From Patescibacteria group bacterium (lineage in GTDB: Bacteria; Patescibacteriota; Microgenomatia; UBA1400; CG1-02-47-37): a stretch of 64,000 bases of DNA. The position numbers and the translations under genes are program-made. The notes under the pieces are model-generated. The model made no database searches. It saw only the letters and a list, made by a program, of their open reading frames with translations, and was not told where the DNA came from. This document shows, in pieces, positions 6,339 through 55,547 of this stretch. Within the stretch, counting starts at the first letter, position 1. Every line of letters starts with the position of its first letter. The stretch covers positions 4,328-68,327 of the forward strand of contig JAYEMX010000064.1 of NCBI GenBank assembly GCA_034718535.1, in the 5' to 3' direction.

Positions 6339-6402
6339 TTAAGGTTCGGAATAAAAGGTTACGAACTCGAACTTTTTAAAGTTCGTAACCCTACAGAACC
6401 TT
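6339..6402. repeat. PAL element, composite: outer arms aaggttc/gaacctt enclose a perfect inner palindrome ggttacgaact...agttcgtaacc
   Basis: Fills the secY-adk spacer; ends 6 nt before the adk ATG. Confidence 0.6.
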
Positions 6403-6405
6403 TAT

Positions 6406-7680
6406 TTAGAGGAAACTGTCATAGTTTCGCATAATTAATTGAGATTCAAAGTTTTTACTAGTTTCAAGAATAACAGAAACAACGATTAAAATACCAGTAC
6501 CGCCAATAGTCATGGTGGTAATATTGGTTATATATCTGGCAATAGAAGGCAAAATAGCTATAAATCCTAAAAATAAAGCCCCGGCTAAAGTAATTCTGCT
6601 TAAAACATAAGAGAGATAGTCGGCAGTAGACTTGCCCGGTCTGATCCCGGGAATAAAGCCACCGTTTTTTTTGATGTCTTCGGAAATTTTATCCGGATTA
6701 AAAGTAACAGCAGTATAAAAATAAGTAAAAGCAATTACCAAGGTTAAATAAATAAGGTGGTAAGGAACTTTATTCGGATCAAAAAGGTTAACCAAACCAG
6801 TGGCAAAAGCAACTATTTTAGGGTTATTAACTTCGGTTAAAAATCTACCTAAAACAGATGGCATTAAAACCAAAGAAACGGCAAAAATAATCGGAATAAC
6901 TCCGGCTTGATTAACTCTTAAAGGTAGATGAGTTGATTGACCCGGTTGAGTACGACCACTAACTCTTCTGGCATAACGAACTTTAATTTGACGAGTAGCT
7001 TCATTAACATAAATAACTCCAGAGATAACCGCTAAGCTTAAAACAGTAAAAGTAATAATACTGGTAAAATTTAAGGTTTGACTAATTGAAGAGGTTTGAA
7101 GTAAAGAAACTGGAAGACGACCAACAATACCGGCAAAAATCAATAAGGAAATTCCATTACCAATGCCATATTCTGTAAGGAGTTCACCCAGCCACATTAA
7201 TAAAACCGTACCGGCCACCATAGTAATAACCGTACTAATGGCAAATATGGGGCTTGATAAAGATATTATTTGTTGGTTTTTTAGTAAGGCAACCATACCA
7301 ATACTTTGAATAGCGGCTAAAGGAATAGATAATATTCTAGTCCATTGATTAATTTTTTCTCGACCATACTCACCTTCTTTGCTGATTTCTTCAAGCTTGG
7401 GAAAGATCATGGTAAGAAGGTTAAAAACAATTGAGGCATTAATGTAAGGGCCTAATCCCAAAGCCATAACTGAAAAATTAGCTAAGGTGCCACCGGAAAA
7501 AATATCTAAAAGACCTAAAAGTTCACTGGAGCCAAAAAGTTGTTTTAAAGCGCTAAGATTAACACCGGGAACCGGAATGTGGGCAATAAAACGAAAAATA
7601 ATAAAAATAAAAAGAGTGATTAATATTTTTTTTCTTAAATCTTTAATTTTAAATATATTTAAAATCGGTTGAATATTCAT
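6406..7680 (-). CDS. secY: Preprotein translocase subunit SecY
   Basis: 10-TM SecY family similarity; spc-operon position. Confidence 0.92.
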
Positions 7681-37334: not shown

Positions 37335-38030
37335 ATGATTATTAGGATGCCATCAAAGAATAGGAATAAAGTTTATAAAGAAAACGGATATTATCATGTT
37401 TATAATCGTGGGGTTGATAAACGAAAAATTTTTATGGATGAACAAGATTATGCTGTTTTTTTGCATTTACTAAAGTATTATCTTTCTCCACCCAGCAAAG
37501 AAGACAAACATCCTTTGTCGGATACTTCTACAGCTGTGATTAGGCCTAGGCCAATTGAAAATTTACATCAAGAGGTTAATTTACTTGCTTATTGTTTGAT
37601 GCCAAACCATTTTCATTTATTGATAAAACAAAAAAGTATTGATGGTATGACAAAACTAATTCATAAACTACTAACTATTTATTCAATGTATTTTAATAGG
37701 CGTCATAAACGTATTGGCCATTTGTTTCAAGGTTGTTATAAGGCAGTTTTAGCTGATAATGACGAGCAGGTTTTGCATCTATCTCGATATATACACCTTA
37801 ATCCAGTTAAGCTGACAGGGTCTGACCCTGTCAGGTGGCCATACTCAAGTTTGGCTTATTATTTAGGGGAGAAAACTGCTAAGTGGGTGAAACCTAAAGA
37901 AATACTTGAGTGTTTTGAAAAGATAGAAAAGAATAAACTAACAAATAAAAACTACAATTCTTATAAAGAATTTGTTTTTGACGATAAAAAAGATTCTAAA
38001 GAAACTGTTGGCAGGTTTTCTATTGATTGA
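37335..38030 (+). mobile_element. RAYT-type HUH tyrosine transposase (IS200/IS605 TnpA-like, Y1). The likely true start is MPSKN at 37347, matching the N-terminus of RAYT-2.
   Basis: YHVYNRG...LMPNHFHLL (HUH)...SRYIHLNPVK (catalytic Tyr); flanked by REP-1 copies and carrying one internally. Confidence 0.8.
37812..37834. repeat. REP-1 palindrome ctgacagggtctgaccctgtcag inside the RAYT-1 CDS, encoding LTGSDPVR
   Basis: Perfect palindrome, in-frame. Confidence 0.7.
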
Positions 38031-40942: not shown

Positions 40943-42283
40943 TTAACGGTTTTGATTGATTCGTATCTCTTTAGTTTTTATGGTTTCTGTCAAGAAATAA
41001 TTATTTGAGTGATCGAACTCAAGAACTTGAGCTGTTTTAGGAATGATGACTTGTTTAGAGTGATAGCCCATTTCTTTAGCTAATTTTTCATATTGGCGCA
41101 TATGTCTAAAACTGCCACCGATGGGATAAACATAACGAGCATTAACTAACTCCATTAAAAGCTGAATCTCTCCAGCAGAAGCATGACCCGAGACGTGAAG
41201 GTCTTCAATCATTTGGCTATGATTAACCGTGACTCCGAGTTTGGCTATTTGATCAAGAACTTTGTAAACCAAAGTTTCATTGCCCGGAATAATATCTGAC
41301 GAAAAAATAATTTTGTCGGTTAATTTTAATTTTAAAGTTCTATGAGTACCGGCGGCAAATCTGGTTAAAGAAGAACCTTCTTGGCCCTGACTGCCGGCAA
41401 TAATAACACAAACTTGATTATCTCGATATTTTTTTAGTTGATTTGGTTTAATAATGGCTTTAGATGAAACTTTTAAAAATCCAAGTTTGATAGCGATGGT
41501 AGTATTTCTTTCCATGGATCTACCGATAAAACAAATTTTTCTTCCCAAACTAATGGCTACATCAACTGCTTGTTGAATCCGATGAATTTGAGAAGACATG
41601 GTGGTAAAAATCAGACGACCATTCCAATAGCTAAATTCACGATGAATGGCTGGAGTTAAGGTAGCTTCTGAAGGAGTAAAACCCTGTCTTTCTCCTCTTA
41701 AGCAGTCAGAAATTAAACAAAGAATTTTCTTTTGACTTAAATTAACAATTTTTTGAAAGTTGGGAGGACGGTGGTCGATTGGAGTTAAATCAAATTTGTA
41801 GTCGGTACCATGATAAATATTACCAACCGGCGTTTCGATGACAAAATGAAAAGTATCTGGAACCGAGTGAGTAACATGGATAGGGTGAATAGTAAATAGT
41901 CCGAGTTTAATTTGATCTGATTCTTTAAAAACAGTAATTTTTTGATTTAATTTAAAGTCTTTGAGACGATCTTGAGCAAAACCAGCGGTTAAGCGAGAAG
42001 CATAAATGGGATGGTTGCCAATTTTAGGTAAAATGTGAGGCAGGGCAGCATGATGGTCATCGTGCCCGTGAGTCAAAATAATTCCTTTAATATTAATCTC
42101 CGGGTGATTTAGTAGATAACTAATATCGGGAATTAAGATATCATTAGTTTCTTTATCGTCCGGAAAGCCAATCCCGCAATCAATGATAATGGCTTCTTTC
42201 CCATATTGATATAGGTACATGTTATTAGTAACCATGCCCGGCCCACCGCCGAGAGGAATGATGCGTAAATTGTTATTGTTCAT
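40943..42283 (-). CDS. rnj: Ribonuclease J (metallo-beta-lactamase / beta-CASP)
   Basis: LTHGHDDH motif; beta-CASP region. Confidence 0.8.
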   Translation of the reverse strand: MNNNNLRIIPLGGGPGMVTNNMYLYQYGKEAIIIDCGIGFPDDKETNDILIPDISYLLNHPEINIKGIILTHGHDDHHAALPHILPKIGNHPIYASRLTAGFAQDRLKDFKLNQKITVFKESDQIKLGLFTIHPIHVTHSVPDTFHFVIETPVGNIYHGTDYKFDLTPIDHRPPNFQKIVNLSQKKILCLISDCLRGERQGFTPSEATLTPAIHREFSYWNGRLIFTTMSSQIHRIQQAVDVAISLGRKICFIGRSMERNTTIAIKLGFLKVSSKAIIKPNQLKKYRDNQVCVIIAGSQGQEGSSLTRFAAGTHRTLKLKLTDKIIFSSDIIPGNETLVYKVLDQIAKLGVTVNHSQMIEDLHVSGHASAGEIQLLMELVNARYVYPIGGSFRHMRQYEKLAKEMGYHSKQVIIPKTAQVLEFDHSNNYFLTETIKTKEIRINQNR

Positions 42284-43347
42284 ATTGGTAAATAGTTTTT
42301 AATATTTTTTAAGGTTAAGTGAATGTGCTTAGTTTGACCTTCAACTATTAGTTTAGCAATTTTATGACAAATTCCTTTAATAGTCCGCTCCAAAGTTCTG
42401 ATACCGGCATCAAAGCCCAGAGGTCTAACTATTTTTGGCCAAATATCATCATCTAAACTTAAATTGTCTTTGGTTAAACCAGACTGTTTTAAAGTATGAG
42501 GTAAAATATAATTTTTAGCGATAGTAATTTTTTCATTATCAGTATATGAAGGCATTTGGATAATTTCCAAACGGTCAAGAACAGCAGTGGCAATATTCCT
42601 AGTATTGTTGGCCGTAGCTATAAATAAAACGTTTGATAAATCGACTGGATAATCCAAATAATGATCGGTAAATTGAGAGTTTTGTTCCGGGTCAAGTAGT
42701 TCAACTAAAACACCCATAATATCGGCTTGAGCATTAGCGCCGACTCTATCAATTTCATCCAGCAAAAAAATTGGATTTTTGGTTTGAGCTTTTTTTAGAG
42801 CTTTAATAATTAAACCCGGTTCGGCATCGGGATGAAGTCTAGATTGACCCCTTAAATCTCTGGCTGATCCTAAACCGCCAAAAGGAATACGGACATATTT
42901 TCTTTGCATGGCTTCAGCCAATGAAGGACCAAAGGTGGTTTTACCAGTACCAACTAAACCAACTAAACATAAAATTGGGGCCCGTGAAATTTTATTATTA
43001 TAATTAAGATTATTTGACTGCGAACGAGTTAATGACAAAACAGAAATATATTCCAATATTTTTTCTTTAACTTGATCCATACCATAATGATGTTTATCTA
43101 AAATTTCTTTGGCGATTTTTAAATTTAGTCTATCTTGACTAAATTTTGTCCAAGGAAGACTTATAATCCAATCCAAATATTTTGAAGTACGTTCAAATTC
43201 GATTGAATAACCTCGGTGCTCCACCATTAAAGAAAGTCTTTTAATCATTTCTAAAGTTTTGATTTTTAACTCAGGGGGAAGAGTAATTTTAGATAGTCTA
43301 TTTTCCAATTTTTGGGTTTCTTTAACTAGGGCAGATGTCTGGTTCAT
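42280..43347 (-). CDS. Lon-family AAA+ ATPase module without LON N-terminal or S16 protease domains
   Basis: Lon signatures (KILEYISV, ILCLVGLVGTGKTT, LLDEIDRVG, LDPEQN, LFIATANN, LDRLEII) in a 355-aa protein ending before any protease Ser-Lys dyad; ATGA-coupled to rnj. Confidence 0.6.
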   Translation of the reverse strand: MNQTSALVKETQKLENRLSKITLPPELKIKTLEMIKRLSLMVEHRGYSIEFERTSKYLDWIISLPWTKFSQDRLNLKIAKEILDKHHYGMDQVKEKILEYISVLSLTRSQSNNLNYNNKISRAPILCLVGLVGTGKTTFGPSLAEAMQRKYVRIPFGGLGSARDLRGQSRLHPDAEPGLIIKALKKAQTKNPIFLLDEIDRVGANAQADIMGVLVELLDPEQNSQFTDHYLDYPVDLSNVLFIATANNTRNIATAVLDRLEIIQMPSYTDNEKITIAKNYILPHTLKQSGLTKDNLSLDDDIWPKIVRPLGFDAGIRTLERTIKGICHKIAKLIVEGQTKHIHLTLKNIKNYLPI

Positions 43348-43362
43348 AGGGCAAATGTGTTT

Positions 43363-45525
43363 CTAATGTTGTCGAGACCGACGACTATTAAAGTTACCAC
43401 TTGATCTTTGAGGGCTTGATTGCTGGCGTTGTCTAGCTTGATCTTCTTGTTCGGGAGTTAAAGTAGTTAAATCAATTCTATTCATTTCGTCTATTTTGGT
43501 AACTCTAACATGGAGAGAGTCACCGATTTTAACTACGTCGTTAATATTTTTAACAAATTGATCTGATAGTTTACTAATATGGACCATGCCATCTCTTCCG
43601 GGAAGTAATTCAACAAAGGCACCATAGTTTTCAACTCTAACAACCGTGCCATCAAATTCTTCACCAACTTGAATTTCTCTGGTTAGGCCTTTAACCCAAG
43701 TAACGGCTCTGTTTAAATTTTCATCAGTTTCTCCGGTAATGGTGACACAACCATCATCTTCGACATTAACTTCACACTCAGTAGATTTAATAATTTCTTT
43801 GATTTGTCTGCCACCCGGACCAATCAGTTCACCGATTTTTTCTACTGAAATATTAAGGGTGGCGATTTTGGGAGCATAAAGAGAAAGTTTTTTTCTCGGT
43901 GTAGCTAAGGTTTTGGCCATTGATTCCAAGACGGTTAGTCTGGCTATTTTAGCTTGGTTTAAAGCGGTTTCTAAAACTTTAAATGGTATACCGGAAATTT
44001 TAATATCCATTTGTAAGGCGGTAATGCCGTCTTTAGTGCCGGCTACTTTAAAATCCATATCACCAATATGATCTTCTAAACCTTGAATGTCGGTTAAAAT
44101 AGTATAGTCGTCTTCTTGTTTCATTAAACCCATAGCAATACCGGCGACTGGTTTTTTTAGAGGCACGCCAGCATCCATTAATGAAAGAGATGAGCCACAA
44201 ACAGAGGCCATAGACGAAGAACCATTGCTTGACATAATTTCGGAAACAACCCTGATAGTGTAGGGAAAGTTTTCTTTGGTTGGAAGCATTGGTTCAATAG
44301 CTCTTTCAGCTAAGGCTCCATGGCCAATTTCTCTTCTTTTTGGCCAACCAATTCGGCCGGTTTCACCAACACAAAATGGAGGAAAATTATAATGATGGAT
44401 ATATCTTTTCTTGGTTTCACCATTTAAATCTTCAATTAATTGTTCCAGCCTGGGTGAACCTAAAGTAACAACAGAAAGAGCTTGAGTAGCTCCTCTTTTA
44501 AACATGGCAGATCCGTGAGTTCTTGGAAGAAGACTAACTTTTGAAGAAAGATCTCTAACTTGATCAGTGGTGCGACCATCCGGTCTGATTTTTTTATCAA
44601 AAAGTTGAGTTCTTAATACTTGGTTAAAATAATTATTAATAACTTCTTTGATTGTATTGGGTTCTATATCTTCGAGTTGATTGATAACAGCTTGTTCGAT
44701 TTCATAAATTTCATTTTTAGGTGAACCTGCTTTTAATCTTTTAATAAAGTCGTCAAGTGAAGATTTGGATTTGGCTAAGATTTCTTTTTTATCTGTTTCA
44801 GAAATTTTACTTTCCAATACTTCTACTTTTTCAGTTCCAATTTCTTTTACTAATTGATTGATAACTTCTGTTATTTTTTTAATTTCTTCTCCGGCTGTTT
44901 CCAAGGCTTTGATGGTTAATTTTTCGGAAATTTCATTGGCTCCAGCTTCAACCATAACAATAGCCTGCTTAGATCCGGAAACAACTAAATCAAGTTTTGA
45001 AGTCTCCAGTTCTTTTTTAGTCGGATTAATAATTAAATTACTTTTTGGGTCAGTGCCGATTCTAACAGCTGCAATTGGACCTTTAAAAGGAATGTTTGAA
45101 ATACTTAAGGCGGCTGAAGTGCCGATTAATCCCAAAATGTCAGGATTGGTTTGTTTGTCGTAGGATAAAATCGAGACAATAACTTGAACTTCCGACATAT
45201 AGTTTTTTGGGAATAACGGCCTAATTGATCGATCAATTAGTCTGGCTTTTAAAATAGATTCGTCTGTTGGCTTACCTTCTCTTTTAACCCAACGAGAGCC
45301 TTTAATAATACCGGCGGCATAAAGCTTTTCTCGATATTCAACCGATAAAGGAAAATATCCCAAACTGGGGTTTTCTCTGCCGGCTACCACGGTAACTTGA
45401 ACAACAGTTTCTCCGGAAGTAACGATAACAGCACCGGAAGCTTGCTGAGCATAACTACCGACTTCAATAGTTATCTCTTTATTATTAATAGTTACAGATT
45501 TTGAGGTTATTTTAGTGTTTGACAT
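43363..45525 (-). CDS. pnp: Polyribonucleotide nucleotidyltransferase (PNPase) with an R/Q/S-rich C-terminal tail
   Basis: Two RNase PH domains plus KH and S1. Confidence 0.92.
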   Translation of the reverse strand: MSNTKITSKSVTINNKEITIEVGSYAQQASGAVIVTSGETVVQVTVVAGRENPSLGYFPLSVEYREKLYAAGIIKGSRWVKREGKPTDESILKARLIDRSIRPLFPKNYMSEVQVIVSILSYDKQTNPDILGLIGTSAALSISNIPFKGPIAAVRIGTDPKSNLIINPTKKELETSKLDLVVSGSKQAIVMVEAGANEISEKLTIKALETAGEEIKKITEVINQLVKEIGTEKVEVLESKISETDKKEILAKSKSSLDDFIKRLKAGSPKNEIYEIEQAVINQLEDIEPNTIKEVINNYFNQVLRTQLFDKKIRPDGRTTDQVRDLSSKVSLLPRTHGSAMFKRGATQALSVVTLGSPRLEQLIEDLNGETKKRYIHHYNFPPFCVGETGRIGWPKRREIGHGALAERAIEPMLPTKENFPYTIRVVSEIMSSNGSSSMASVCGSSLSLMDAGVPLKKPVAGIAMGLMKQEDDYTILTDIQGLEDHIGDMDFKVAGTKDGITALQMDIKISGIPFKVLETALNQAKIARLTVLESMAKTLATPRKKLSLYAPKIATLNISVEKIGELIGPGGRQIKEIIKSTECEVNVEDDGCVTITGETDENLNRAVTWVKGLTREIQVGEEFDGTVVRVENYGAFVELLPGRDGMVHISKLSDQFVKNINDVVKIGDSLHVRVTKIDEMNRIDLTTLTPEQEDQARQRQQSSPQRSSGNFNSRRSRQH

Positions 45526-45847: not shown

Positions 45848-46846
45848 TTAGATCTTAGATGAAGAGCTAGTTAAAACTTTTGGCTTTAGCCAATCGGGTT
45901 GAGGAGCTCGAGATTTCTCTGGTAATCTCTGTAAAGGTTTAGTAGAGGGTTGTTGAGGGATAGATTGAGATAATTGAGGGGGTTTGTTTGGAGTAGAAAC
46001 GGGGTGGAGCTGGTTAGTTGGTTGAAGTGACGGGGTGGTTGGCCAGCTTGGAATTTGTCTTGGAGTTTTTGAAGTAAAAGGAGTAGTAGGGCGAGGAGTT
46101 GATAAAATATAACCTTTTTTAGCCCCTAAACGAATTAACTCTGCTACGGTTTCATAGGTTTCCGGAGATGAAGCTTGAGCTAAGTTGTTGGTGGCAGATT
46201 CAATGCCTGTAAGTAAGTTGGTGGCAATATCTTGATTGATGGAAAGATTAAGTGATTTTAAAACCGTAAAAGTAATTTCACTGCAACCAGTTGAGGTGGG
46301 ATCATATATATTAACAGTGCCAAATTGAGTATTTTTATCTAAGTTTGATAAATTAACTATGGGTGTTTTTGGATCATCAAGTAAAGTTTTTTCTTGCTGA
46401 TACAAAGACCCCAGGTCTTCTTTACTTTTGGTGCCGATAATAAAAATAAGGTCGGCATTTGAACCGGTGTAGGAATATTTAACTGATTGAGAGTCAAGGG
46501 GTGGAAAGCCGGCTTTTGGTTCAATGGTCAGGTGAATTTTTTTGTTTTGAGGGTCTTTGTCATAGGAAACTTTTTCTAGAGAATCTTCATCATATTGAAA
46601 AGAGATAACTAAGTTCTGGTTGCCAATGTTTGATTTGATTTTATCAACGGCAAAAAGACGATTAAAATTAACTGTCATAGGGGTTGAACAACCAATGGTA
46701 GGATTTTTTTGCTGATTAAGTAAAGATAAATAAAGAGATAGTCCGGCAGATACAATGTCTAGGTTGGGATTTTGGGGAAGTAAAATTAAGACTGTTTTTG
46801 CAGTTTTTAGGGCAGTTAAGATAGGTTGGGTGTTATATTGTTTCAT
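45848..46846 (-). CDS. DHH-family phosphoesterase-like protein (NrnA-like position after infB) with an apparently degenerate catalytic motif and a P/T/Q/S-rich C-terminal tail
   Basis: N-terminal VLILLPQNPNLDIVSAGLS resembles NrnA motif I/II without the Asp/His; tentative. Confidence 0.3.
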   Translation of the reverse strand: MKQYNTQPILTALKTAKTVLILLPQNPNLDIVSAGLSLYLSLLNQQKNPTIGCSTPMTVNFNRLFAVDKIKSNIGNQNLVISFQYDEDSLEKVSYDKDPQNKKIHLTIEPKAGFPPLDSQSVKYSYTGSNADLIFIIGTKSKEDLGSLYQQEKTLLDDPKTPIVNLSNLDKNTQFGTVNIYDPTSTGCSEITFTVLKSLNLSINQDIATNLLTGIESATNNLAQASSPETYETVAELIRLGAKKGYILSTPRPTTPFTSKTPRQIPSWPTTPSLQPTNQLHPVSTPNKPPQLSQSIPQQPSTKPLQRLPEKSRAPQPDWLKPKVLTSSSSKI

Positions 46847-50902: not shown

Positions 50903-51742
50903 TTAGGTAAGTGTATCAAACTTTTTTAAAGCCTGCTTTTGAGCTCGGGTAAGTTTTTGCGGAATTTTTATAATAAGACGAATATATTGATCTCCTCGAC
51001 CAACTCCTCTTAAGTGAGGCATACCCTTGCCCTTAAGACGAATTAAAGTATTTGGTTGAGTACCTGAACGAACTTTAAGCTTAATATTTTTTCCGTCAAC
51101 AGTTGGAACGCTGATAGTTCCACCAAGTGTAGCTTGGGCAAAAGTGATCTGATGATTAATAAAGATATCATGTCCTTCCCTCTTAAAGGTTTTATGTGGT
51201 TTGACTTCGATGCTGACAAAAAAATCATTAAACCTAATTCTGGTGCCGTCATCGGCTCCCGGAGGAATTTTTATTTTATATTCTTTACCTTGATGAATAA
51301 GATTTTTTTCAACTCCTTTAACAGCCTGGATAAAATCGATGGTAATACCATAACGAGGAATTTGTCTGGCTTGTCTAAAGGGTGAAGCTCCTCCACTAAA
51401 AAAAGATTCAAAAATTTCAAAAGGATCGGTAAATCCACCAAAATTAAAACCTCCGGTTCCTTGTCCACCAGTGGTGGAGTATGAGTAAGTAAATGGACTT
51501 TTAAATCCCCTTGATGGGTCAAAAGCAGCATGACCAAATTGATCATATTGTTTTTTCTTTTTAGGGTTTGAAAGAACCTCATAGCTTTCAGAGATTTCTT
51601 TAAACTTTTCGATGGCTTGTTTGCTTTTGTTTTTGTCTGGATGATATTTTAGGGCCAGCTTGCGATAAGCTTTTTTAATCTCAGCTGTTGAGGCATCCTT
51701 TTTAACCCCAAGGACTTCGTAAAAATCTCGCTTGGTAGTCAT
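50903..51742 (-). CDS. dnaJ: J-domain chaperone, DnaJ-like type II (J domain, G/F region, C-terminal domains, no CxxCxGxG zinc finger)
   Basis: J domain with HPD (ALKYHPDKN); Cys-free. Confidence 0.8.
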
Positions 51743-53655
51743 TAGTCTTCAATGACTTCGCCTTCTTGGGCTTGAGTTTTATCTTCAGATTTTTTATTTT
51801 TGTCTTTATTTTTGGTTGATTTTTTGCCTTTGGATTTTTTGGCAGCTTCTTGTTTTTGCTGGGCTTTATACATGGCAGCACCAACTTTTTGTAAAGATTC
51901 GGATAAATCTTTAGATTTAGCCTCCAGTTCATCTTTGTCAGCTTTTTCCAAGACACCTTTTAGGGATTTGATTTTTTCCTCAATGTCTTTTTTATCTTTT
52001 TTGTCGACTTTATCACCGGCATCTTTTAAAGTTTTTTCGGCGGTAAAGATTAAAGTGTCGGCTTGATTTTTAATTTCCACTTTTTCTTTTTTAAGTTTAT
52101 CTACTGCTGCATGCTTTTCCGCCTCTTTAGTAATGTTTTCCACTTCTTCGTCGGACAATCCAGTAGAGCCTTTAATGGTTATTTTTTGCTCTTTGCCAGT
52201 GGCTTTGTCTTTAGCAGAAACATTTAAAATACCGTTAGCATCAATATCAAATTTAACTTCGATTTGAGGAACGCCACGAGGAGCCGGTGGGATTCCGTCC
52301 AAGATAAATCTTCCAAGAGATTTATTATCAGCAGCCATGGCTCTTTCTCCCTGAAGAACATTAATTTCCACGGAGGTTTGATTGGCGGCGGCTGTGGAAA
52401 AAGTTTGAGATTTTGAAGATGGAATAGTGGTATTTCTTTCGATTAACGGAGTAGAGACACTGCCTAGAGTTTCTAGTCCTAAAGTAAGAGGAGTTACATC
52501 TAAAAGCAAAACATCAGTAACATCACCCATTAAAACACCAGCTTGAATAGCGGCACCGATAGCAACTACTTCATCTGGATTAACGGATTTATTTGGCTCT
52601 TTACCAAAGAATTCTTTAACCACTTGCTGAATTTTAGGCATTCTGGTTTGACCACCAACTAAAATTATTTCATCAATGTCTTTTTTATCAAGTTTGGCGT
52701 CTTTAAGACAAGATTTAACCGGCTTCATGGTTTTTTCAATAAGATCATCTACTAATTTTTCCAAATCAGCTCGAGTTAATTTCATGGTTAAATGAAGGGG
52801 TTGCCCGTCTTTGCTTTGAGTAATAAATGGTTGATTAATTTCTGTTTCTCCTGAAGAGGAAAGTTCTATTTTGGCTTTTTCGGCCGCATCTTTGATTCTT
52901 TGTAAAGCTTGTTTGTCTGCTTTTAAGTCAATACCATGTTCTTTTTTAAACTTTTTAGCGATGTGGTCAATTATTTTTTGATCAAAATCATCTCCTCCAA
53001 GGTGAGTATTACCATTGGTGGCTTTAACTTCGTAGACGTTATCTCCCAGTTCTAAAATAGAAATGTCAAAAGTGCCACCGCCCAAATCATAAACAGCTAT
53101 GGTTTCCACTTTTTTCTTTTCAAGGCCATAGGCTAAAGCGGCGGCAGTAGGTTCATTAATAATTCTTTCTACTTTAAGACCGGCAATTTCACCAGCTTGC
53201 TTGGTAGCTTGACGTTGAGCGTCGTTAAAATAAGCAGGAACAGTGATAACGGCTTTTTCAACTTTTTCTCCCAAGTAATCTTCGGCATCGGTTTTAGCTT
53301 TGGCAAGAATTTTGGCGGCAATTTCTTGTGGAGAATATTTTTTATTGTTAACTTCGACATTAGCAATATCATCTTTGCCCCTAACTACTTTATATGGAAC
53401 CATATTAATAGTTTTTTGAGTATTTTTGTCTGAAATTTTTCTACCCATTAAACGCTTGACAGAGTAAACTGTGTTTTCCGGATTTAAAACCATTTGGCGT
53501 TTAGCAATATCGCCGACTAAATTTTTGACTGGTTCTACTATTGAAGGAATTAAATTATTACCTTCAGATGAGGGGATGATTTTAGGAGAGCCTCCCTCCA
53601 TAACAGCAATGGCTGAATTAGTGGTTCCTAGATCGATTCCAATTATTTTTGACAT
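51742..53655 (-). CDS. dnaK: Chaperone DnaK (Hsp70)
   Basis: [18 protein letters not shown] Hsp70 signatures. Confidence 0.95.
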
Positions 53656-53657
53656 AT

Positions 53658-54059
53658 TTATTTGCCTCCTTGGCCAACTTTTACTTGAGCAGGGCGTAAA
53701 ACTTTTTCATGGATAGTATAGCCCTTTTTGATAATTTCTATTATTTTGTTTTTTGGTCCTTTGATTAGTTCAACACAATCTGATGTTTTAGGATCAAACT
53801 CTTGATTTAAAACTTTTATTTCCTTAACTCCTTCTAAATCTAAAATTGATTTAAACTGATTGATGGCCAGTTTTAAGCCTTTATCTTTTAAATGTTGATC
53901 AGCTCTTTCAAGGTCATCTAAGACTGAAAGAAGTTTGTCAATTATAGATGAGATAGCAAATTTGACATAATCAGATTTATCTTTTTCTATTCTTTTTTTT
54001 AAGTTTTGATAGTCGGCTAAAGCTCTCTTTAATTGATTTTTAATAGGTGATTTTTTCAT
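53658..54059 (-). CDS. grpE: Nucleotide exchange factor GrpE; start at the internal Met MKKSP
   Basis: GrpE family; position between hrcA and dnaK. Confidence 0.8.
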
Positions 54060-54063
54060 AATA

Positions 54064-54789
54064 TTACCAATTTTTGGATATTTCTGTAACAAGTTCCCCA
54101 AAATATCTGATAGTAGGAATGACAGATGGATAATTTAATCGAGATGGTCCGATAATGCCAAGCGAGCCATTGATGTCTCCGGTTTTAAAGTCGGTAAAAA
54201 CTAATCCCAAAGTTTGGAAAAAATCATTATTAAAATCTTCGCCGATTATTAAATGAATGGTTTCATCTCCGGTAACATGCGAAAATAAGTTACTTAATTT
54301 ACTATATTCGTCGATCATAGAGAGAACTTCGCGAGTAACATCAATATCATAAAATTCAGGATTGTTTAAAATATTGGCATGACCAGCATGAAAAACATCC
54401 CCTTTATTAGTGTATGAAAGAGCCAAGCAATCGGTTTTATCAGCTAAAACTCGAGTAATTTCTTTTAAAAATTTATTAACTTCAAAGCGGTGGTCCCAAA
54501 CTTTTTCTTTAACAGCTACTTCGTCGGCTACAGATAAGTCGTCTTCTTTGAGAAGTTCTCTGACATAATACTTTAAACCCATAGGTGTAGGAGTTCGTCC
54601 GGCTGAGGTATAGGGTTGGTTTAAAAATCCAGATTTGGTTAAAGTTACCATTTCATTTCTAATAGTAGCCGGAGAGATACCAAGATCATATTTTTTTTCA
54701 AGAGTAACACTACCAACCGGTTCGGCGGTTTCAGTATATTCAGTAATAATTGCTTTTAAAATTTGAGCTTGTCTATTTGAAAGTTGCAT
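54064..54789 (-). CDS. hrcA: Heat-inducible transcription repressor HrcA; start at MQLSNRQAQIL. The ORF-track N-terminal extension covers the CIRCE element and a REP.
   Basis: Winged-helix N-terminus; hrcA-grpE-dnaK-dnaJ order. Confidence 0.8.
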   Translation of the reverse strand: MQLSNRQAQILKAIITEYTETAEPVGSVTLEKKYDLGISPATIRNEMVTLTKSGFLNQPYTSAGRTPTPMGLKYYVRELLKEDDLSVADEVAVKEKVWDHRFEVNKFLKEITRVLADKTDCLALSYTNKGDVFHAGHANILNNPEFYDIDVTREVLSMIDEYSKLSNLFSHVTGDETIHLIIGEDFNNDFFQTLGLVFTDFKTGDINGSLGIIGPSRLNYPSVIPTIRYFGELVTEISKNW

Positions 54790-54791
54790 AA

Positions 54792-54818
54792 TTAGCAGAA
54801 GGATAACACGACTGCTAA
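54792..54818. promoter_or_regulatory. CIRCE-like operator TTAGCAG-N13-CTGCTAA, immediately 5' of the hrcA start
   Basis: 27-nt element with perfect 7-nt inverted arms; outer TTAGCA/TGCTAA match the CIRCE consensus. Confidence 0.55.
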
Positions 54819-54847
54819 TTAGTGTCAAGGATTGTTTTGGCAATAAA

Positions 54848-54870
54848 CCTACAAGGAGAGTCCTTGAAGG
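54848..54870. repeat. REP-2 palindrome (cctacaaggagagtccttgaagg) upstream of RAYT-2
   Basis: Imperfect inverted arms around the agag centre. Confidence 0.65.
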
Positions 54871-55048
54871 CTTATACTTGAGGGTGTATACTGAATTTAA
54901 TGCCTTCAAAAAATGCTTTAAAAATCTATAAAGAAGATTCTTATTATCATATTTATAATCGAGGAGTGGCTAAGGCAAATATTTTTAAAGACAAAAAGGA
55001 TTATAAAGTTTTTCTTGATTATTTGAAAATATATTTATCTCCTGTCGA

Positions 55049-55071
55049 CCTACAAGGAGAGTCCTTGAAGG
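55049..55071. repeat. REP-2 copy inside the RAYT-2 CDS (encodes DLQGESLKV)
   Basis: cctacaaggagagtccttgaagg in-frame. Confidence 0.65.
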
Positions 55072-55352
55072 TTTCACCATCAAGAGAATTGAAAAATTAT
55101 TCAGATGAAATTATCTTGGTTGCTTATTGCTTAATGCCAAACCATTTTCACTTATTAATTCATCAAAAAAATAAGGATTCTATTAATTACTTTATGAGAT
55201 CTTTGGCTACAAAATATTCAAGATATTTTAATACTAGATATGATAGGGTTGGCCCATTATTTCAAGGTGTTTATAAAGCTGTTAAGGTTGACAATGAAGA
55301 TCAGTTGGTTTATTTGACTAAATATATTCATCGAAATCCTATTAATATCCTA

Positions 55353-55375
55353 CCTACGAGGAGAGTCCTTGTAGG
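55353..55375. repeat. REP-2 copy inside the RAYT-2 CDS (encodes LPTRRVLVGY), directly after the NPI(N) motif
   Basis: cctacgaggagagtccttgtagg in-frame. Confidence 0.65.
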
Positions 55376-55547
55376 TTATAAATACTCTAGTTATGGAAAT
55401 TACTTGGGATTATTTAAACAGGTCTGGGTAAAGCCAAATATGATTCTTGGATTGTTTTCTGCCTCTAATAAGTTATTTAGTTATAAAAGTTTTGTGGAAG
55501 AATTAGAAGAAGATTATAGTTCTATAAATAAAATTGTTCTTGATTAG

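Follow-up and report, generated by a model that had tools for sequence, protein, structure and literature searches.

A stand-alone Lon-type AAA+ ATPase without protease or N-domain: a conserved family of Patescibacteria with an altered pore loop

Lon is described as an AAA+ protease whose motor and peptidase are fused in one chain, and, according to reviews, all Lons hold both domains (PMC9569914). LonC is known as a Lon-like protease without ATP-powered unfolding activity (PMC3391209), and the protease-independent 'chaperone' activity of Lon is debated, being credited either to the ATPase (PMC8368198) or to the N-domain (bioRxiv 10.64898/2026.05.06.723147). Here, we describe a gene for a Lon-type AAA+ module that stands alone, located in a stretch of 64,000 nucleotides from a Patescibacteria group bacterium (assembly GCA_034718535.1, contig JAYEMX010000064.1, positions 4,328 to 68,327), which is referred to below as the window. 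This gene, designated gene X, occupies positions 42280..43347 of the minus strand of the window, begins with an ATG codon and encodes a protein of 355 amino acids (aa), which corresponds approximately to residues 250-580 of E. coli LonA. Judged from its sequence and predicted fold, protease-less Lon-type ATPase is the right description of this protein, which belongs to a conserved, monophyletic family. Literature searches returned no account of a protease-less Lon family, in the candidate phyla radiation (CPR) or elsewhere, with one phrase search being flooded by unrelated matches, and the family is apparently undescribed so far. The function that we favour, with a probability of about 0.5, is that of a protease-independent, oligomeric Lon-derived ATPase, which would remodel or chaperone proteins in a housekeeping role.

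Identity, extent and distribution of the stand-alone ATPase

The X protein contains a Pfam AAA domain (residues 126-264) and a Lon_lid domain (287-340) and no further domain. It matches only positions 255-570 of the 795 positions of the TIGR00763 (lon) profile with 341.6 bits against a cut-off of 608.05, and NF008053 with 267 bits against a cut-off of 891, thus scoring under the curated NCBIfam cut-offs for a whole Lon protein. The top matches among solved structures (phmmer against PDB) are LonA and LONP1 only, with E values of 1e-76 to 1e-80, and include B. subtilis LonA (3m6a) and residues 250-580 of E. coli Lon (6u5z), so that the N-terminus of X is the equivalent of E. coli Lon residue ~250 and its C-terminus is the AAA+/P-domain boundary of LonA. 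In an AlphaFold2 model computed from a 24-sequence family alignment (mean pLDDT 89.7, pTM 0.83), three helices at the N-terminus lead into an alpha/beta subdomain and then a helical lid. The top 50 Foldseek matches of this model in PDB are all Lon structures, with TM scores of 0.86/0.90 to the E. coli Lon AAA+ fragment 6N2I, and overall the fold similarity to LonA lies at TM 0.8-0.9 with a sequence identity of 36-44%. Lon is hence the best match by sequence, profile and fold, as had been proposed in a first-pass annotation of this DNA made from its letters alone, and no other AAA+ clade fits better. The same annotation held that both the N-domain and the S16 protease domain are missing, and this is borne out by the Pfam and NCBIfam profiles, which place the protein in Lon without Lon_C, by the limits of the LonA alignment and by the empty searches with Lon_C and LAN models described below. 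A BrxL-like anti-phage defence ATPase was considered as well and rejected, with PADLOC matches being only marginal (E values of at least 2.5e-5). In public databases the protein is named 'AAA family ATPase' by NCBI, and JGI pipelines label its homologues 'ATP-dependent Lon protease', which is a systematic mis-annotation.

The boundaries of gene X leave no room for lost parts. Alignments of homologues run from residue 1-2 to the end, which makes the start codon credible. The stop codon of the upstream pnp gene lies 15 bp before the ATG, and the stop codon of X overlaps the start codon of the downstream rnj gene in an ATGA at 42280..42283 on the minus strand (tcat as read on the plus strand), so that with junctions of 15 and -4 bp a frameshifted protease or N-domain remnant would not fit beside X. 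Queried by tblastn with two canonical Lons (their protease and N-domains), the window gave no match, and profile hidden Markov models (HMMs) derived from 100 Lon_C and 45 LAN domains gave none in its six frames. A downstream frameshifted protease, which the first-pass annotation had raised as a possible objection, is therefore absent, and a split or frameshifted protease or N-domain beside X is ruled out by the junctions, tblastn and HMM searches together. Across the 47 distinct loci of the family, including the window (594 kb in total, retrieved from GTDB genomes and JGI metagenomes with a flank of +/-10 kb around each match), no Lon_C or LAN domain was detected in the X open reading frame (ORF) or elsewhere, even at E<=10 and with both ORF and six-frame searches; as a positive control, 53 canonical Lon loci from the same scans were all flagged with Lon_C and LAN. 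No recurrent unannotated neighbour of X was found among the family loci either.

A homology search identified, besides the cluster of the query itself (a Patescibacteria metagenome-assembled genome, MAG), 119 further clusters among the best 120, all of 298-375 aa, with AAA and Lon_lid only and with identities to X down to about 60%. Named sources of the family are Beckwithbacteria, Gottesmanbacteria, Shapirobacteria, Microgenomates, Dojkabacteria and 'Patescibacteria group', with the exception of a few MAGs labelled Pseudomonadales, Spirochaetia or Nevskiaceae. These are probably mislabelled, since most of the retrieved flanks show the gene order of CPR loci, and the family is apparently confined to Patescibacteria. 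In a simple neighbour-joining tree of AAA+ modules, constructed without support values, the stand-alone forms make up one clade, apart from canonical LonA and from multi-AAA Lons. The family would thus be LonA-derived by sequence, having lost the LAN and coiled-coil region and the S16 protease. Longer members of up to 669 aa (P0129, P0134, P0140, P0146, P0160 and P0163) were considered as possible carriers of degenerate domains, which was rejected, their extensions being low-complexity tails rich in Q, P, S and N.

A separate observation from the exhaustive search concerns its top representatives, which are proteins of 900-1700 aa with two to three tandem Lon-type AAA+ modules followed by one Lon_C domain. 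These multi-AAA Lon proteins (P0121-P0128, P0130, P0133, P0135-P0139 and others) all lie outside the window and form their own clades in the neighbour-joining tree; the sole representative with a source taxon name, P0121, comes from Candidatus Dependentiae. The idea that X is a split-off D1 ring of such tandem-AAA proteins was rejected, as these form other clades with their own S16 domain.

Conserved ATPase residues and an altered pore

The X protein was numbered to E. coli and Y. pestis Lon by alignment to solved Lon structures, the roles of the Lon residues used for mapping were taken from Y. pestis Lon cryo-EM (PMC7239648), and conservation was followed in 109 near-family sequences and 12 distant stand-alone representatives. 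All parts of the gene given here lie on the minus strand. The protein begins with an N-terminal three-helix bundle equivalent to the NTD-3H of LonA (residues 3-63, 43159..43341; helices 3-20, 25-44 and 49-63 in the AlphaFold2 model and by alignment to 6n2i), which is followed by the AAA+ large alpha/beta subdomain (residues ~76-268, 42544..43122), delimited by Pfam AAA and the model, and by the small alpha-helical lid subdomain (residues 269-355, 42283..42543), which holds Pfam Lon_lid. The residues for nucleotide binding and hydrolysis are retained without exception: K136 (Lon K362) in the Walker A motif GLVGTGKT (42937..42960), D197/E198 (Lon D423/E424) in the Walker B motif IFLLDEID (42748..42771), sensor-1 Asn247 (Lon N473; 42607..42609), the trans-acting arginine finger Arg259 (Lon R484; 42571..42573) and sensor-2 Arg317 (Lon R542; 42397-42399) are found in 109/109 near-family sequences and are also invariant in the 12 distant ones. 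Conservation of the arginine finger suggests an active site shared between subunits, and hence a probable oligomer.

Equally kept is the network by which the pre-sensor-1 (PS1) beta-hairpin and NTD-3H are coupled in Lon. The bridging glutamate E221 (Lon E447) is present in 107/109 near-family and 7/12 distant sequences, Y230 at the PS1-beta-hairpin turn (Lon Y456) is Y or F in all, and in the NTD-3H pocket Y57 (Lon Y294) is invariant and W60 (Lon W297) occurs in 107/109 and 9/12 sequences, respectively. A comparison of conserved positions with canonical LonA gave 64 shared and 21 family-specific positions, the canonical set having been picked by a regular expression that contains the pore tyrosine, which makes the invariance of that Tyr in this set circular. 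The family-specific positions cluster in the Walker-A lead-in, where Leu-Val replaces the canonical Pro-Pro, in pore loop 1, in pore loop 2 (P to I210, A to V213) and in the sensor-2 lid, where YTRE is changed to LGFD; the lid (42283..42543) also contains the family-specific motif W303...RPLGFDAGIRTLER.

The most pronounced change concerns pore loop 1 (RGQSRLHPDAEPG, 42814..42852), which reads RGHRRTY(I/V)GAMPG in canonical Lon. R395 is replaced by an invariant Ser, Y398 by His172 (95 His, 12 Arg and 1 Phe in the near family), I399 by Pro173, G400 by Asp and M402 by an invariant Glu, so that the Y398/I399 pincer of LonA is absent from X, which has His172-Pro173, and the tip of the loop is acidic in the family, (D/E)-A-E-P-G. 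Among 40 family loci with a readable motif the Tyr398 position is occupied by H in 11, F in 6, I in 4, S and Y in 3 each, R, N, A, D and Q in 2 each, and E, L and T in one each, as compared with Y in 51/51 canonical Lon loci of the same scan, which for this independent count were chosen by the presence of Lon_C and LAN. The first-pass description of a complete Lon ATPase signature set accordingly holds for nucleotide binding and hydrolysis and fails for the Tyr-Ile of pore loop 1. Of its designation as a protease-less unfoldase, the first half stands and the second is weakened, given that the Tyr398/Ile399 pincer is replaced and its position variable in 40 loci.

In the near family, a conserved aromatic residue is also found in the NTD-3H loop. 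A 2-3-residue insertion in the NTD-3H loop is located beside the near-invariant Tyr47 (107/109; 43207..43209), which aligns to Lon M284, a residue of the upper substrate-contacting spiral above the pore (PMC7239648). Position 44 of X is mostly aromatic as well (F28, Y27 and H21 of 109 near-family sequences). From these alignments, the aromatic 'paddle' may have been shifted from pore loop 1 to the NTD-3H entry loop in the near family.

Genomic neighbourhood

In the window, gene X is part of a long co-directional array with the order hrcA-grpE-dnaK-dnaJ-x-nusA-infB-(DHH-like)-rpsO-pnp-X-rnj-ftsK-HTH_25. Its upstream neighbour encodes polynucleotide phosphorylase (PNPase; 720 aa, 43363..45525, minus strand), in which profile searches detect two RNase_PH domains, KH and S1, and its downstream neighbour encodes RNase J (446 aa, 40943..42283, minus strand) with beta-CASP, MBL and RMMBL domains and without the C-terminal domain. 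Minus-strand genes make up 59 of the 67 ORFs of the window, and 16 of 60 same-strand junctions overlap, six of these by exactly 4 nt. Because overlaps are this frequent, the ATGA overlap between X and rnj is unremarkable, and the translational coupling emphasized in the first-pass annotation is real as an overlap and loses its meaning as a special signal. In a long co-directional array of housekeeping genes, adjacency and ATGA coupling carry little information. A scan around X revealed no enrichment of promoter-like sites (41 versus 35 expected), and no terminator-like match was found within the pnp-X or X-rnj junction.

Across the family, rnj is located directly downstream of X in 17/39 informative loci and up to four genes downstream on the same strand in 26/39, over a range of 49-86% identity, and ftsK is found within four genes downstream in 20/39; pnp lies directly upstream in 11/30 informative loci and within four genes upstream in 17/30, all of these counts including related lineages that are not phylogenetically independent. 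One genome has the order pnp-X-ftsK without rnj, and a 39%-identical member is flanked by pnp, four genes off, and by ftsA/pilM...ftsK. A Dojkabacteria member is isolated among unrelated genes, and other subclades have X beside alaS/uracil-DNA glycosylase (UDG) or unrelated genes. In a subclade with the pore loop QSKT.PE(A/S)EPG, X is divergent beside groES-groEL in 7 loci, and in an eighth locus groES-groEL is located a few genes downstream, so that groES lies within four genes in 8 loci in all. In the groESL-type and other contexts both rnj and pnp are absent. The pnp-X-rnj order is thus one lineage's inherited gene order and not a family-wide association, and, since rnj-ftsK and rpsO-pnp are equally syntenic, the whole block appears to have been inherited. 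The neighbourhood is real in the window, as first annotated, and belongs to only one part of the family; the idea built on it, that the ATPase is a partner of the RNA decay machinery, is neither borne out nor refuted, the rnj/pnp association being lineage-restricted.

Several further observations concern genes and signals near X. A gene for a family-4 UDG is often present directly or closely downstream of X, between X and rnj, frequently with a junction of 1-4 nt (L019 3421-4053; L029 2220-2855; L031 1632-2273; L033 11044-11649; L035 1085-1732; L046 1621-2247; L048 4327-4956, where L numbers denote family loci), and in L032 a family-1 UNG-like gene occupies the same slot. In the groES-divergent subclade a conserved promoter-like pair, TTGTCAAG ... 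TCTGCTAA(T/C), ends 2-13 nt before the ATG of X (L008 ~2880-2931; L012 ~6370-6418; L020 ~580-623; L036 ~1330-1381; L037 ~620-672). The pattern suggests a dedicated promoter for X in this subclade, and the X mRNA could possibly be leaderless or near-leaderless there. The complete heat-shock operon hrcA-grpE-dnaK-dnaJ (50903..54909, minus strand) heads the same array as X. Despite HrcA, no match to the consensus of the HrcA-binding element CIRCE with up to three mismatches was found in the 64-kb window, nor was CIRCE found in three groES-X intergenic regions (L008, L012 and L020), and control of X by HrcA/CIRCE was rejected on these grounds.

Other features of the window are noted in their own right. 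The RNase J at 40943..42283 covers positions 5-437 of 549 of the RNase J1 profile and scores below the TIGR00649 cut-off; a short RNase J of 443-458 aa is also present in L001-L003 and L016, and the enzymes of other CPR loci measure 554-566 aa. Between infB and rpsO, a 332-aa ORF (45848..46846, minus strand) has no Pfam match and ends in a long C-terminal stretch rich in P, Q, S and T. Its positional counterpart in L021 matches DHH (PF01368), which suggests that the 332-aa ORF is an NrnA-like nanoRNase and a third RNA-turnover gene of the array. IS200-like Y1 transposase-family ORFs (PF01797) at 37335..38030 and 54900..55547 are among the few plus-strand genes; the former is conserved in L001, a related genome, at the corresponding position (78% identity) and may be a domesticated or REP-associated copy rather than an active insertion sequence. 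Scans of the 64-kb window, which holds ribosomal-protein and rpoBC regions, detected no tRNA gene and no Rfam family at gathering score.

Proposed function and comparison with known systems

In the model that we favour, X would assemble into a Lon-like ring or spiral, as is suggested by conservation of the trans arginine finger, which has no other rationale. A precedent is the isolated E. coli AAA+ fragment EcLon(235-584), whose ADP-bound form packs into an open helical hexamer (PMC6722904). ATP turnover would then serve non-degradative work, namely the binding and the remodelling, holding or releasing of client proteins, with the coupling of nucleotide site, PS1 beta-hairpin and NTD-3H kept from Lon and nothing to deliver substrates to. 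The central channel would have been re-specified by loss of the Tyr-Ile pincer, an acidic tip and, in the near family, a near-invariant Tyr in the NTD-3H entry loop. X would accordingly act as a housekeeping proteostasis factor and not as a motor that processively unfolds and translocates substrates to feed a peptidase, and in this genome it would be co-transcribed with pnp, rnj and ftsK merely as part of the housekeeping array. A role of this kind has parallels in LONP1, whose anti-aggregation activity requires the ATPase and not the protease (PMC8368198), and which cooperates with mtHSP70 in folding (PMC7801493). A chaperone context is also provided by groES-groEL divergent beside X in 7 loci and by hrcA-grpE-dnaK-dnaJ at the head of the window array.

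Several points weigh against such a protein-remodelling ATPase. A 2026 preprint describes the chaperone-like activity of LonP1 as ATPase-independent and mediated by the N-domain (bioRxiv 10.64898/2026.05.06.723147), which the X family lacks. Oligomerisation of canonical Lon depends in part on its protease ring and N-terminal region (PMC6722904), and self-assembly of the AAA+ module by itself is therefore not guaranteed. A pore-1 Phe or Tyr is kept in 9/40 family loci, and this together with the conserved Tyr47 of the near family would also be consistent with a modified translocase. An S16 partner could be encoded at an unlinked position of the genome, the search having covered the locus flanks, 594 kb. 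Adjacency to groESL is seen in a single subclade only and may itself be inherited synteny.

These points lead to the alternatives. X may be a modified and still genuine protein unfoldase or translocase without protease. It would thread clients via the Tyr47 loop and a His/Phe/Tyr pore loop, and its parallels would be ClpX on its own or a single-ring disaggregase. Presence of Tyr47 in 107/109 sequences at the substrate-contacting M284 position beside a mostly aromatic position 44, F, Y or H at the Tyr398 position in 20/40 loci and retention of the residues coupling the PS1 beta-hairpin to the pore all argue for it, but the aromatic-hydrophobic-Gly motif is replaced by X-Pro-Asp (with X here any residue), R395, the tandem arginine by which the engaged loop is stabilised, has become an invariant Ser, and half of the loci have a small, polar or charged residue in place of Tyr398. 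This reading is rather unlikely. It would be clearly improbable that X docks on a separately encoded S16 or other peptidase ring and still feeds proteolysis in the manner of ClpX-ClpP or HslU-HslV. To our knowledge, all other protease motors of the HCLR clade (ClpX, HslU) are separate polypeptides, the ATPase machinery and PS1 beta-hairpin are intact in X, some members keep an aromatic pore-1 residue, and a family-invariant L-G-F/Y at residues 310-312 superficially resembles the IGF docking motif of ClpX. This LGF, however, is located in the lid, five residues before the sensor-2 Arg and beside the nucleotide pocket, and no protruding loop carries it; the pore-1 aromatic varies freely within the clade, contrary to what would be expected of a processive translocase; and the 47 loci yielded neither a Lon_C or LAN match at E<=10 nor a conserved unannotated neighbour.

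A place of X in RNA decay, as subunit or regulator of a degradosome-like assembly of PNPase and RNase J that remodels, for example, ribonucleoprotein substrates or the nucleases, is quite doubtful. The position between pnp and rnj with its tight 15-bp and -4-bp junctions and the recurrence of both genes within four positions (rnj in 26/39 loci, pnp in 17/30) speak for it, but the adjacency is not universal, as the pnp-X-ftsK genome without rnj illustrates, insertions of UDG and other genes separate X from rnj, subclades are found beside groESL, alaS/UDG or unrelated genes, and rnj-ftsK and rpsO-pnp are equally syntenic within a co-directional array rich in overlaps; moreover, the acidic tip of the pore loop (D174, E176) would be poorly suited to RNA binding. 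A more specific version, in which X would join PNPase and RNase J in an RNA-decay complex peculiar to CPR as its ATP-dependent remodelling subunit, filling the role of the DEAD-box helicases of other degradosomes and using its acidic, non-aromatic pore to unfold basic RNA-binding proteins or strip transcripts of them, is very improbable. The chance that X is a decaying remnant or an assembly artefact, whether a lon pseudogene cut short or a piece of a full-length gene that was assembled wrongly, is negligible. The JGI label 'ATP-dependent Lon protease' on homologues and the score below the TIGR00763 cut-off could be read in this way, but the same architecture of ~350 aa recurs in more than 100 clusters and in 47 loci, which come from independent assemblies and whose genes to either side are complete, and dozens of columns are invariant down to ~40% identity with clean domain boundaries, which refutes this reading.

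Being widespread and strongly conserved, the X family may offer a natural test case for a Lon motor without proteolysis or N-domain, and it opens the questions of what the Lon AAA+ module can do alone, whether it can assemble without a protease ring and what is bound by a channel lacking the canonical tyrosine. It also bears on the organisation of proteostasis in ultra-small CPR cells, and the label 'Lon protease' on its homologues could inflate the apparent proteolytic capacity of these genomes.

Among known systems, ClpX and HslU are free-standing unfoldases of the HCLR clade. X resembles them as a single-ring AAA+ protein of this clade that is encoded apart from a peptidase and has a PS1 beta-hairpin, and differs in that their partner peptidases are known and usually encoded nearby, and that their pore loop is strictly aromatic-hydrophobic. 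With ClpB/Hsp104, which are chaperones, X shares the protease-free AAA+ state, and the HI(CC)/NB region of LonA has been argued to resemble the H1-M/NB2 region of ClpB (PMC6722904); ClpB, in contrast, is built of two AAA+ rings, with a coiled-coil in its M-domain and pore tyrosines that are conserved, and X has one ring, lacks a coiled-coil and shows no fixed aromatic in the pore. LonC of Meiothermus taiwanensis is, like X, a Lon derivative occurring in nature that has dispensed with one of the two activities, and it is the mirror image of X, as it keeps the protease beside a dead ATPase-like module, whereas X has a live-looking ATPase and no protease. LonA itself has in common with X the NTD three-helix bundle, the AAA+ large subdomain, the Lon lid and the catalytic ATPase residues, and is set apart by its LAN N-domain (PF02190) and coiled-coil, its C-terminal S16 Ser-Lys protease (PF05362), Y398/I399/G400 and R395 in pore loop 1 where X has His/Pro/Asp and Ser, and Pro-Pro rather than Leu-Val ahead of Walker A. 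The nearest likeness is to E. coli Lon 235-584 (6N2I), with near-identical boundaries (query residues 10-354 align to residues 10-340 of the chain). That fragment is a laboratory product of limited proteolysis, whereas X is naturally encoded, conserved and has re-specified pore loops, and X is effectively the natural counterpart of EcLon(235-584).

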